Part shown: one piece after another, positions 9,083-11,761 of the stretch
Position numbering within the stretch: position 1 is the stretch's first letter
Layout of the letters: the number at the start of each line of letters is the position of its first letter
IMG/VR virus record: IMGVR_UViG_2630968911_000003
Coordinates: 1 to 11,761 of that record
Origin: a virus
Lineage: Duplodnaviria; Heunggongvirae; Uroviricota; Caudoviricetes
Direction: 5' to 3' (one strand)
DNA length: 11,761 nucleotides
Notes under the pieces: model-generated
Told to the model about the DNA's origin: nothing
Database searches by the model: none
Seen by the model: only the letters and a program-made list of their open reading frames with translations
Translations under genes and position numbers: made by a program

Positions 9083-9433
9083 TCACTTTAACCGTTCACG
9101 GGCCGTCTTCGCCTTATGACACGGCCAGCACAGGCTCTGCAGATTACTGTCGGCATCAGAGCCGCCATGCGCTTTAGGGATGATGTGATCAACGGTTTTC
9201 GCTTCACGCACCACACCGGCACGCAGGCACAACTGGCACAGTCCTTTGTCACGCTTCAACACACGCACGCGGATAACATCCCACTTCGAACCATAACCGC
9301 GCTGATGACGGGATTGTCCTGGCTTGTATTGCTTCCAGCCTTCGCTTTTGTGGCTTTCACAATAGCCTGACGGGTCTGTGGTGGTATGGCGGCAGCCACG
9401 AACACGGCAGGCTTTTGGGATTCGTGATGGCAT
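9083..9433 (-). CDS. HNH endonuclease (terminase-associated)
   Basis: Contains an HNH motif 'VDHIIPKAHGGSDADSNLQSLCWPCHKAK' and an N-terminal Cys/His cluster 'CRVRGCRH...CESH'. The start is placed at the ATG at 9433 (116 aa), which has a GGAG ribosome-binding site 5 nt upstream; the track start at 9532 lacks one. Confidence 0.85.
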   Translation of the reverse strand: MPSRIPKACRVRGCRHTTTDPSGYCESHKSEGWKQYKPGQSRHQRGYGSKWDVIRVRVLKRDKGLCQLCLRAGVVREAKTVDHIIPKAHGGSDADSNLQSLCWPCHKAKTARERLK

Positions 9434-9655
9434 ATGTACTCCAATGAAGAAGCCACCGACATAGCCTCCTCCATTCATCGTGAAACTATTTTCATCTACC
9501 CAGTAATGAATTCTTTGTAGAGTTGTGATCAATACAACTCACTAATGGAGAGGCTTGTCCAACACGTTGGACAAGTTTCCTGTTTGATTTACTGGACACT
9601 ATAGAAGGACAGAATGCCTTCATCACTCGAATAACATCAATTAAGGAGGTTCAAC

Positions 9656-9778
9656 ATGTTTCATTCCACAAATCATCAGGCTGTAATTATGGCTGCATCA
9701 GCTTGTACCACAGACCTTTTCCGCTTCACTTTGAGCCTGATTCATTTCTACCTGACCGGCTCGCCTCTATCTTTTTAA
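9656..9778 (+). CDS. small hypothetical protein (40 aa) with strong ribosome-binding site
   Basis: AAGGAGG (9643-9649) lies 6 nt upstream of the ATG at 9656. The ORF encodes MFHSTNHQAVIMAASACTTDLFRFTLSLIHFYLTGSPLSF with a hydrophobic C-terminal half. It is below the ORF-track size cutoff and no homology was recognised. Confidence 0.3.
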   Translation: MFHSTNHQAVIMAASACTTDLFRFTLSLIHFYLTGSPLSF

Positions 9779-9958
9779 TCCCCGCTTTATCCAAATTGCA
9801 TTGCCAGAATGCCGACAACAGACTGACATTCAAATCCTGACTACCTCCAATAGTCTGACCGTACACCTATATAGTTTTAATTTTCATCAATCCATTTAAC
9901 TATCGTTTAATTGTTGTCACATAGGATTCTGCCGTTTTTAACAATGCAGGATAATAAG

Positions 9959-10252
9959 ATGAAAAAAATGTTGTTTTCTGCCGCTCTGGCAATGCTTATT
10001 ACAGGATGTGCTCAACAGACGTTTACTGTTGGAAACAAACCGACAGCAGTAACACCAAAGGAAACCATCACCCATCATTTCTTCGTTTCGGGAATTGGAC
10101 AGGAGAAAACTGTTGATGCAGCCAAAATTTGTGGCGGCGCAGAAAATGTTGTTAAAACAGAAACCCAGCAAACATTCGTAAATGGATTGCTCGGTTTTAT
10201 TACTTTAGGCATTTATACTCCGCTGGAAGCGCGTGTGTATTGCTCACAATAA
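9959..10252 (+). CDS. bor: Bor outer-membrane lipoprotein (serum-resistance factor)
   Basis: The 97-aa product 'MKKMLFSAALAMLITGCAQQTFTV...ETITHHFFVSGIGQ...GIYTPLEARVYCSQ' is essentially lambda Bor, with the lipobox LITGC. The track start at 9911 is TTG; the true ATG at 9959 has an AGGA ribosome-binding site. Confidence 0.95.
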   Translation: MKKMLFSAALAMLITGCAQQTFTVGNKPTAVTPKETITHHFFVSGIGQEKTVDAAKICGGAENVVKTETQQTFVNGLLGFITLGIYTPLEARVYCSQ

Positions 10253-10283
10253 TTGCATGAGTTGCCCATCGATATGGGCAGCT

Positions 10284-10745
10284 CTATCTGCACTGCTCAT
10301 TAATATACTTCTGGGTTCCTTCCAGTTGTTTTTGCATAGTGATCAGCCTCTCTCTGAGGGTGAAATAATCCCGTTCAGCGGTGTCTGCCAGTCGGGGGGA
10401 GGCTGCATTATCCACGCCGGAGGCGGTGGTGGCTTCACGCACTGACTGACAGACTGCTTTGATGTGCAACCGACGACGACCAGCGGCAACATCATCACGC
10501 AGAGCATCATTTTCAGCTTTCGCATCAGCTAACTCCTTCGTGTATTTTGCATCGAGCGCAGCAACATCACGCTGACGCATCTGCATGTCAGTAATTGCCG
10601 CGTTCGCCAGCTTCAGTTCTCTGGCATTTTTGTCGCGCTGGGCTTTGTAGGTAATGGCGTTATCACGGTAATGATTAACAGCCCATGACAGGCCGACGAT
10701 GATGCAGATAACCAGAGCGGAGATAATCGCGGTTACTCTGTTCAT
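10284..10745 (-). CDS. Rz: Rz i-spanin
   Basis: '[44 protein letters not shown]...KYINEQCR' is near-identical to lambda Rz. The ATG at 10745 forms an ATGA overlap with the R stop. Confidence 0.95.
10343..10525 (-). CDS. Rz1: Rz1 o-spanin lipoprotein (embedded in Rz, +1 frame)
   Basis: '[60 protein letters not shown]' matches lambda Rz1, with a lipobox and proline-rich region. It lies entirely within Rz. Confidence 0.95.
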
Positions 10746-11239
10746 TGCTGACCCCACAAACAGATTTCACGCTCAATCTCACGACGAGTCATGAGACCTT
10801 TCCATTGCTTACCGCCAGCATATGTCCAGCGACGTAGCTGATCACATGCGCCTTTGATATCGCCCTGGTTTATTTTGCGAAGAAGCGTCGATGTTCTGAA
10901 ATTGCCAGCACCCACGTTGTAAACGAATGAGTAAAGAGCGCCGCGCATTGTTTCCGGTATATCGACTTTGATGTACGGGTTAATTTGTCTGGCGACCGTG
11001 GCAAGGTCTTTATTCAGGAGGGCTTTGCATTCTGCTTTGGTATACGTTTTACCGAGCATGATGTCTTTTCCTGTATGCCCGTGACATACAGTCCATACAC
11101 CAACAATATCTTTGTATGGTATGTAGCTGACACCTTCCAGACCATCGTTACCACTTGGGCCAGTAATTAACACTGATGCTATAGCAATTGCTCCGCCACC
11201 AATAGCAGCAGCAACGGCTTTTCGTAATGATGGAGGCAT
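10742..11239 (-). CDS. R: SAR endolysin (phage 21 R-type lysozyme)
   Basis: A 165-aa protein with an N-terminal Gly/Ala-rich signal-anchor-release domain '[20 protein letters not shown]' and a T4-lysozyme-like catalytic region '[16 protein letters not shown]'. It matches phage 21 R as I recall it. Its ATG overlaps the S stop (TAATG). Confidence 0.95.
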
Positions 11240-11454
11240 TATTCACCTCTCGCAGCCTTGCGCTTATCTTCTTTAATCTTGAAATAAAGGTTTGTCAGGT
11301 ACGTCAGCAGGCCAAATACCAGGCTACCCAGCACACCTATTGCTGCCCACTGTGAGGGCGTGACTTTATCGAGCAGCTGTAAAAACCAGTAACCGGCACT
11401 ACCTGCTGAGGTGCCATAGGCGACACCCGTTGTTAACTTATCCATGGATTTCAT
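11239..11454 (-). CDS. S: pinholin (phage 21 S-type) with dual translational start
   Basis: '[71 protein letters not shown]' is 71 aa with two transmembrane domains. Met1 (11454) and Met4 (11445) give the dual-start arrangement, with a GAGGTG ribosome-binding site upstream. The track ORF, extended to 11499, has no ribosome-binding site. Confidence 0.9.
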
Positions 11455-11761
11455 AACCCCACCTCGCAGACAAAGCGGGTGTAAATTGAGGGAATACAAC
11501 GTATCGCAAAAAAGCAGAAACGTAACAGACTCGGAGTCAGTGAATAACTCAGGTATTGAGTTATCAGCTAATATCGAGACTCAAAAAATGGAAAAACCAG
11601 CTCGACGGCGGGTTTAAGCTGTGTGACGAAGTAACCACTCTTAACAGCATAACCAATTTTTTACGTACGTAAACCACTGAATGATATTTATGAGAATGCT
11701 ACCGAGTGTTCAAAACACCACCACAAATACATAAGAAAACCTCAACAAATAACCAACAAAT

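Follow-up and report, generated by a model that had tools for sequence, protein, structure and literature searches.

The Locus and Its Open Reading Frame

We examined a stretch of 11,761 nucleotides (hereafter, the window; IMG/VR record IMGVR_UViG_2630968911_000003, positions 1 to 11,761), which belongs to a lambdoid/HK97-like prophage with its late genes on the − strand. The gene under study is a 40-codon open reading frame (ORF) on the + strand at 9656–9778 (TAA at 9776–9778), the product of which is MFHSTNHQAVIMAASACTTDLFRFTLSLIHFYLTGSPLSF; it is preceded by the Shine-Dalgarno (SD) sequence AAGGAGG at 9643–9649, followed by a 6-nt spacer (TTCAAC) and the ATG at 9656. We refer to the segment 9530–9778, which includes two promoters and a hairpin upstream of this ORF, as the cassette. 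A preliminary description, made from the sequence without database searches, had pointed out the SD and the ORF, and we find the same positions, the same spacer, and the same 40 codons; it had also placed them between an HNH gene and bor, which is indeed the case, with the HNH endonuclease gene at 9083–9433 (−) and the bor/iss lipoprotein gene at 9959–10252 (+). That the ORF is unannotated is true of RefSeq/PGAP, where no feature lies under the cassette match among the matches listed; a single GenBank phage record, ON470612.1, annotates it as a hypothetical protein (URC10065.1). In the protein database, the 40-amino-acid (aa) peptide is found in 16 clusters, all unnamed or hypothetical. We also observed that, in the HNH–iss gap of locus L003 (NZ_CP024127.1), the RefSeq locus tags skip from CR534_RS21660 to RS21670, which may reflect an earlier annotation that was dropped.

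The SD had been singled out as one of the strongest ribosome-binding sites of the window. The motif is there and is kept in Shigella phage SfIV, but it occurs once in the window for about 1.1 copies expected by chance, so the motif alone is not significant: it is conservation that lifts the SD and the ORF above chance, and it is the phage-promoter context, not the SD, that is the notable feature of the locus.

Two Phage-Polymerase Promoters Upstream of the ORF

Two promoters lie directly upstream of the ORF, on the same strand and within 80 bp, and both are predicted to be recognized specifically by the single-subunit RNA polymerases that virulent Autographiviridae encode. The distal one, CAATACAACTCACTAATGGAGAG, at 9530–9552 on the + strand (−17 to +6, predicted start G9547), is of the T7 group (Berlinvirus type, Studiervirinae). 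It scores 31.0 bits with a Berlinvirus weight matrix, for which genuine sites range from 23.1 to 38.8 and no other site of the window exceeds 6.5; the matrix was built from 29 promoters, 13 of them annotated in Yersinia phage Yepe2 and 16 selected by us in the E. coli phage CarlSpitteler (Bas68), both phages being Berlinviruses. The site shares an identical run of 21 nt with CarlSpitteler site 16891 and one of 18 nt with the annotated phi9 promoter of Yepe2, and BLAST of the short segment returned multi-copy matches in Berlinvirus genomes.

The proximal one, ATTTACTGGACACTATAGAAGGA, at 9587–9609 on the + strand (predicted start G9604), is of the SP6/K1E type (Molineuxvirinae): all 23 of its 23 bases are identical to positions 13925–13947 of phage K1E, which has seven such sites, each located between genes and oriented as the genes are. 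With a K1E matrix, it scores 36.2 bits, the median of the seven K1E sites themselves (31.8–36.9), for a next best score of 8.0 in the window; by BLAST, this type of site is found in 6–9 copies per genome among the K1E/K1-5/Vectrevirus matches listed. Its specificity bases (−12 to −8) read ACTGG, which is the K1E type. A KP34-type promoter is absent from this Escherichia coli window.

No gene for a single-subunit polymerase was found in the window or among the 54 annotated genes of SfIV, in the complete genome of which each matrix picks out a single strong site, in both cases within the cassette; without a cognate polymerase gene in either, these promoters are orphan. Contamination by cloning-vector sequences, which the co-occurrence of T7- and SP6-type promoters would bring to mind, was considered and rejected, since the sequences are Berlinvirus/K1E variants and not the vector forms (the full vector consensus has no match within 3 mismatches), the two promoters are co-directional, and the segment is present in 632 complete genomes as well as in isolated phages.

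Conservation and Selection on the Reading Frame

SfIV has the same SD, the same start, and the same 40-codon frame, with about 86% DNA identity (BLAST). A scan of IMG/VR yielded 85 usable loci, among which we distinguish 35 variants at the DNA level and 14 at the peptide level, each peptide being 40 residues long. One has to keep in mind that these 85 loci were retrieved with an SD + ATG pattern, so that the conservation of the start is partly obtained by construction; the SfIV match, which comes from BLAST, is independent of it. The preliminary description had suggested looking at the conservation of the frame across prophages, and this conservation is borne out: the ORF is 40 aa long in 93 of 94 related loci.

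The C-terminal half of the peptide, LFRFTLSLIHFYLTGSPLSF, is invariant, and its N-terminal half is variable. Over codons 21–41, variant codons in the frame of the ORF are synonymous in nine cases versus one non-synonymous, and seven of the nine polymorphic sites are third positions, a pattern that is that of a real coding gene under purifying selection. The 3′ end of the ORF is overlapped, in antisense, by what is left of an SfIV-type (SfIV/P2-style) overlapped o-spanin gene (9726–9866, −), a non-functional 3′ remnant recognized by alignment to SfIV gp53, in which homology is limited to roughly the last 36 codons. We ruled out this antisense gene as the cause of the C-terminal conservation on two grounds: read in the spanin frame, the same region gives one synonymous versus nine non-synonymous variants, and the ORF is kept beside remnants, the o-spanin being a remnant in 78 of the 94 loci (window included), 77 of which have the full 40-aa ORF.

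An AlphaFold model of the peptide consists of one helix (residues 3–34, mean pLDDT 82). In hydropathy, the best 15-residue Kyte–Doolittle window is 1.18 for the peptide of the window, 1.10 for that of SfIV, and 1.69–2.47 for the Klebsiella-type peptides described below. We consider the E. coli peptide to be probably membrane-active, in line with what the preliminary description had proposed; the predicted single helix and the clearly hydrophobic Klebsiella equivalents support this view, but the E. coli form is itself moderately hydrophobic and has no family match. The Klebsiella-type peptides give only weak, sub-threshold matches in the family libraries (E ≥ 0.019).

Hairpin and Leader

Between the two promoters, at 9550–9579 (+), lies a hairpin of 13 pairs with a T-rich tail (core stem 9554–9562 with 9567–9575), which scores terminator-like on the + strand. 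Across 10 variants, 93% of the cells are paired, with compensatory double changes at three pairs; the observed value was reached in none of 500 shuffles, and slid controls gave 19–39%. The G-U pairs work in + strand RNA only. This hairpin is found again, with 21 identical nt, in the virulent Klebsiella SP6-like phage KpnP_VR702, where a promoter of that phage and AAGGAG come after it, and the hairpin recurs several times per genome in Klebsiella SP6-like phages; this order of hairpin, promoter, and AAGGAG suggests that parts of the cassette were probably acquired from such virulent phages.

A transcript started at the K1E-type promoter would have a leader of 52 nt (9604–9655, +) that contains the SD, with a possible 5′ stem (GAAGG 9604–9608 with CCUUC 9617–9621); this leader is nearly invariant across the 35 variants. 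The T7 class II termination signal ATCTGTT is absent 3′ of the ORF on the + strand. We also noted that, in a read-through RNA, the SD can base-pair with CCTCCTCC (9465–9472), located ahead of the promoters, which lowers the probability of the SD being unpaired from 0.44 to 0.28; this effect is weak, may mean nothing, and is not relied on here. No Rfam family reaches threshold anywhere in the window, so a known RNA family was discarded as the identity of the element.

Genomic Neighborhood

The late genes on the − strand comprise those for the endolysin, Rz/Rz1, HNH, and both terminase subunits, the small one being of the P27 type. The holin, endolysin, Rz, and packaging genes all lie on the strand opposite to the ORF, which is therefore antisense to the late operon; a holin, an antiholin, or another lysis accessory gene of the prophage itself was rejected on this basis, since an ORF so oriented would not be transcribed with the late lysis operon. 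The preliminary description had seen in the ORF a small accessory gene of the lysis/cos-proximal region: it is a genuine, selected gene, but it is antisense to the late operon, and the phage-polymerase promoters had been overlooked.

On the promoter side, the neighbor is the HNH gene, the first of the packaging module. Downstream, on the same strand as the ORF, bor/iss arrived by an insertion of its own, together with the lambda-type DNA that precedes it (about 119 bp, 9840–9958); it is outside the cassette, and SfIV has the cassette without bor. This insertion separates the SfIV-type spanin remnant from the lambda-type module, a complete Rz/Rz1 pair at 10284–10757, and the bor upstream segment is found in thousands of E. 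coli records as well as on plasmids, beside iss. The gap between the small terminase and HNH genes contains a GC-rich inverted repeat at 9003–9072 (GGGGCGGG ... CCCGCCCC); the ends of the mature SfIV genome are at the equivalent position, 58 nt past HNH, and the repeat may be the cos site.

Variant Cassettes in SfIV and in Klebsiella Phages

The promoters of SfIV differ from those of the window. The specificity bases of its SP6-like site read AGGTG (SP6 type) instead of ACTGG (K1E type), the difference being at −12 to −10; at −11 of the T7-like site, SfIV has G and the window A, both forms occurring in real Berlinvirus promoters.

The Klebsiella temperate phages Kp4864-1 and RCIP0114, as well as six IMG/VR loci retrieved with a Klebsiella-phage pattern, carry other promoters in the same slot, i.e., after the 3′ end of the spanin gene and antisense to it. 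Their T7-group site exists in several versions, one of which (Przondovirus/K11-like) matches 135 records from Klebsiella phages of about 40 kb; their SP6-like block matches 8–11 sites per genome in Klebsiella SP6-like phages of about 45 kb. These cassettes further contain a KP34-like box, TAATGTTACacGAGTA (TAATGTTAC(ac/cc)GAGTA), in which 15 of 16 bases are as in the strong promoter of KP34, mapped experimentally (PMC6834552); the block matches the KP34 genome exactly at the mapped promoter. In Klebsiella-type cassettes, about 150 bp thus hold at least three promoters. As far as their sequences tell, the promoter sets track the host genus.

The payload is always an ORF of 37–40 aa, helical or hydrophobic and preceded by a strong SD, with sequences that differ between types: Klebsiella-type cassettes encode different peptides of 37–38 aa, MLKISLLSTIVNHKITFAVIYFLLSLIHFYLTGSPLSF and MLEVLNSLAPFAPAINAIVILICSIIAKYYGVLPLSF, with strong SDs and clear hydrophobic cores. 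None of the cassettes examined lacks a strong SD, not even those with these unrelated payloads. The ribosome-binding site of the Klebsiella-type 37-aa ORF is AAGGAGGTATACATG (L098:1390–1405; L168:5159–5173), which differs little from the site of T7 gene 10 found in pET vectors. An additional conserved block, CACAGGGAGA...AAGTTACACAA(T/G)AGAA, lies between the KP34-like box and the SD (L096:1395–1420 and its equivalent in L098); it is loosely SP6-core-like, matched no phage group, and may be a further promoter.

Some copies are decayed. The Klebsiella-type locus L121 no longer has a T7-group promoter, and it shows a degenerate KP34-like box and ATA in place of the ATG; in L029, at 8650–8860, a tandem duplicate of the 5′ half of the cassette and of the start of HNH has ACGGAGC as its SD, ACG in place of ATG, and GACAGTATAGGGGGG as its SP6-like box, with an intact cassette directly downstream. 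In both, several parts are lost together, the signature of the decay of a whole unit.

Distribution and Mobility

The cassette is present in 632 of 5426 complete E. coli genomes (11.6%, about one in nine), including ST131 and O157:H7 strains. The backbones in which E. coli-type cassettes are found are HK97-like (sipho-type), SfV-like (myo-type), and lambda-like. Of the full-length promoter-region matches listed for E. coli, all but one correspond to this E. coli type; the exception is L168:4960–5284 (E. coli 20KM2222), a Klebsiella-type cassette with T7-group, SP6-like, and KP34-like boxes and a 37-aa ORF, located in a P22/lambda-like prophage with a different packaging module. Since several unlike prophage backbones carry the cassette, it moves as a module. 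In every context examined, the cassette lay in a full prophage, and one tiny ORF followed the promoters.

A Cassette Switched on by Invading Phages?

We propose that 9530–9778 is a silent cassette that would be transcribed by the polymerase of an invading phage, rapidly yielding a membrane-active peptide that aborts the infection, and we give this proposal somewhat better than even odds. The cassette is probably silent in the uninfected lysogen, as it is antisense to the late operon, has no recognizable host promoter, and contains a terminator-like hairpin. Upon infection by a virulent Autographiviridae phage, the newly made polymerase would transcribe the cassette, the short message would be translated quickly from the strong ribosome-binding site, and the peptide would kill the cell or otherwise block the infection, an abortive infection that would protect sister lysogens. 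The tandem promoters would form an OR gate, allowing several phage lineages to trigger one effector, the triggers being polymerases of the T7 type, of the SP6/K1E type, and, in Klebsiella, of KP34-type phages. Host DNA is destroyed within minutes of a T7-type infection, and a short cassette would suit the few minutes that precede this destruction.

The promoter identities, the covarying hairpin, the selection on the frame, and the host-matched promoter sets can be read in the sequences; from these, we infer that the invader transcribes the cassette, that the peptide is toxic, and that lysogens are protected. The presence of the cassette in 632 of 5426 E. coli genomes was counted in favor of the proposal, given that the SP6-type pattern is at chance level elsewhere (21 hits, in unrelated taxa, over 596 Gb of species-representative genomes, for about 17 by our chance estimate). 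It is the identity of the promoters that makes us lean toward invader-triggered expression. A broader statement, to which we would give slightly less than an even chance, is that enterobacterial temperate phages carry a modular “polymerase tripwire”, in which the promoters of every local T7-, SP6-, and KP34-type lineage are OR-gated to a suicide or interference peptide. Under such a scheme, the RNA polymerase activity of the invader would be the signal of infection, and both the specificity bases of the promoters and the variable N-terminal half of the peptide would be engaged in an arms race, which we advance just as tentatively.

Several observations weigh against our proposal of an invader-triggered cassette. 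The variants in codons 2–20 are synonymous in 2 cases versus 23 non-synonymous, which fits an arms race with diversifying selection or, equally, relaxed constraint. The T7-like site reads CTCGCTA, not CTCACTA, in 24 of the 85 copies and the SP6-like site reads GACAGTATAGG in 10, both changes falling at positions that are likely to matter, so that these sites may be inactive or retargeted; no cognate phage was found in IMG/VR for the GACAGTATAGG variant, nor for the specificity variants AATGG and ACTTG. The hairpin could stop transcripts coming from the upstream promoter. A single chromosomal promoter competes with the many promoters of the phage, and host DNA is soon degraded. In addition, the hydrophobicity of the E. 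coli peptide is moderate, with D20 and R23 in the middle of the helix, which makes membrane toxicity a guess. Finally, no sigma-70-like promoter was found at 9350–10050 on either strand, but this comes from a simple, crude scan that also misses the promoter of bor, a gene which has a known promoter and is expressed in lysogens.

Other explanations have to be set against these data, and each of them conflicts with at least one observation, be it the orientation, the codon pattern, the host-matched promoters, or the assembly of promoters from several lineages. The ORF could, as in the preliminary description, be a moron or accessory gene of the usual kind; host polymerase would then transcribe it, either in the lysogen or at a late stage of the prophage's own cycle, and the phage-type promoters would be irrelevant. 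Its location among lysis and accessory genes, its small helical product, and the same-strand bor/iss, which is expressed in lysogens, are compatible with this; we nevertheless find it improbable, since the sigma-70 scan was negative, a terminator-like hairpin lies upstream, the ORF is antisense to the late operon, and the promoter sets follow the host genus. The orientation also bears on a satellite-like hijacking, in which the prophage would use the polymerase of the invader for its own expression, for the priming of replication, or for mobilization rather than for killing. Tandem T7-group promoters beside AT-rich DNA resemble the primary origin of T7, and the cassette adjoins the packaging module and moves between different prophage backbones; yet the promoters face away from the packaging genes and are antisense to the lysis genes, and the only conserved product on the sense strand is the 37–40-aa ORF, bor being absent from SfIV. 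We regard hijacking as having a small chance of being correct.

The ORF could also be incidental, the effector being the RNA or transcription itself, by way of an antisense RNA over the lysis genes, titration of the polymerase, or conflict between transcription and replication. That the hairpin and leader are better conserved than the first 20 codons speaks for it, as does the fact that T7-type polymerases ignore most host terminators, so that transcripts would run far into the prophage. It fits poorly with codons 21–41, which vary nearly only at third positions (7/9), even opposite a dead spanin remnant, or with the strong SD of every cassette examined, unrelated Klebsiella-type payloads included, and one chromosomal copy cannot titrate a polymerase; we thus hold it for unlikely. 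Even less probable, in our opinion, is a non-functional recombination scar, i.e., a captured and drifting Autographiviridae fragment with its hairpin, promoter, and ribosome-binding site. KpnP_VR702, with its identical 21 nt of hairpin, its own promoter, and AAGGAG, provides a plausible source, and some copies are visibly decayed; however, a scar would not be expected to combine in tandem the promoters of up to three different subfamilies, to show compensatory changes in the hairpin and codon-level purifying selection on the ORF, or to be kept in 11.6% of E. coli genomes and in several prophage backbones.

Relation to Known Systems

The closest working precedent for a cassette triggered by an invader is nonA of the Bacillus subtilis prophage SPβ, a small transmembrane abortive-infection protein that is silent until it is induced by the sigma factors Orf199-Orf200 of phage SP10 (PMC8270828, citing Yamamoto et al. 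2014). Both are prophage-borne with a small product and, by analogy, the cassette would likewise be switched on by the invader and abort its infection; nonA differs in that the phage sigma factors induce it by way of the host polymerase, whereas the cassette has tandem promoters for single-subunit polymerases of several lineages, is found in a Gram-negative host, and has a putative function.

The closest structural precedent is the set of islands that Chen and Schneider reportedly described in 2006: T7-like promoters that follow one another in tandem, by twos or threes, over about 150 bp of enteric prophage-like DNA with no polymerase gene. These islands, of which there are said to be 12 clusters, reportedly span 4–13 kb, carry an integrase, have between two and five phage-related genes behind the promoters, and were given a satellite-like interpretation; the promoter pair of the window may be among them. 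The cassette agrees with this reported definition by its two promoters within 80 bp and its lack of a polymerase gene, and seems to depart from it by being located in full-size lambdoid/HK97-like prophages and by its payload, a single 37–40-aa peptide. A link with sit islands, in the context of which a 2020 review cites Chen and Schneider (Nucleic Acids Res 2006;34:1133), was examined and dismissed, as no sit genes were found near the cassette in JJ1886, IAI39, and one O157:H7 strain.

The succession of promoter, hairpin, and near-consensus SD is that of the late-gene signals of the T7/SP6 group, such as the T7 phi10 promoter with its 5′ stem-loop and AAGGAG, except that it is found here in a temperate phage without such a polymerase and combines promoters of unrelated specificities. 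Type I toxins such as Hok, TisB, Ldr, and Ibs are similar in several respects (about 40 residues, one predicted helix, presumed silence, plausible action on the membrane); unlike in type I toxin–antitoxin systems, control would be exerted by promoter specificity and not by an antitoxin. As for an antisense RNA antitoxin, no Rfam family was found at threshold in the window, and no promoter was predicted at 9350–10050 on either strand. The cassette is also reminiscent, by analogy, of the suicide cassettes engineered in Lactococcus, in which a lethal gene is placed behind a promoter activated only by an infecting phage; Djordjevic, O’Sullivan, Walker, Conkling, and Klaenhammer are said to have made such a fusion of a phage-inducible promoter to a lethal gene in 1997. 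Those cassettes are man-made, while that of E. coli would be natural and multi-input. A full-text literature search, including the SfIV genome paper, returned no description of the cassette, of its peptide, of the host-matched variation, or of a prophage toxin driven by a phage polymerase.

Implications for Prophage-Borne Defense

The peptides of the window and of SfIV have no match in PADLOC, Pfam, PHROGs, or NCBIfam, which means that gene-based defense finders are blind to this cassette. Klebsiella variants carry promoters of the podovirus groups that are most used in phage therapy against Klebsiella and E. coli, and could therefore affect the host range of therapeutic phages. The promoter content of prophages could also be a record of the virulent phages met by a host lineage. 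If our proposal is true, it would give a concrete function to the “orphan T7-like promoters” reportedly noted in enterobacteria in 2006. The cassette would then be a natural immune sensor that reads an activity specific to the invader, namely transcription from phage-specific promoters, and not a phage protein or nucleic acid, and that would need about 250 bp and no protein sensor: most likely, a booby trap set by the prophage and switched on by the invading phage itself.

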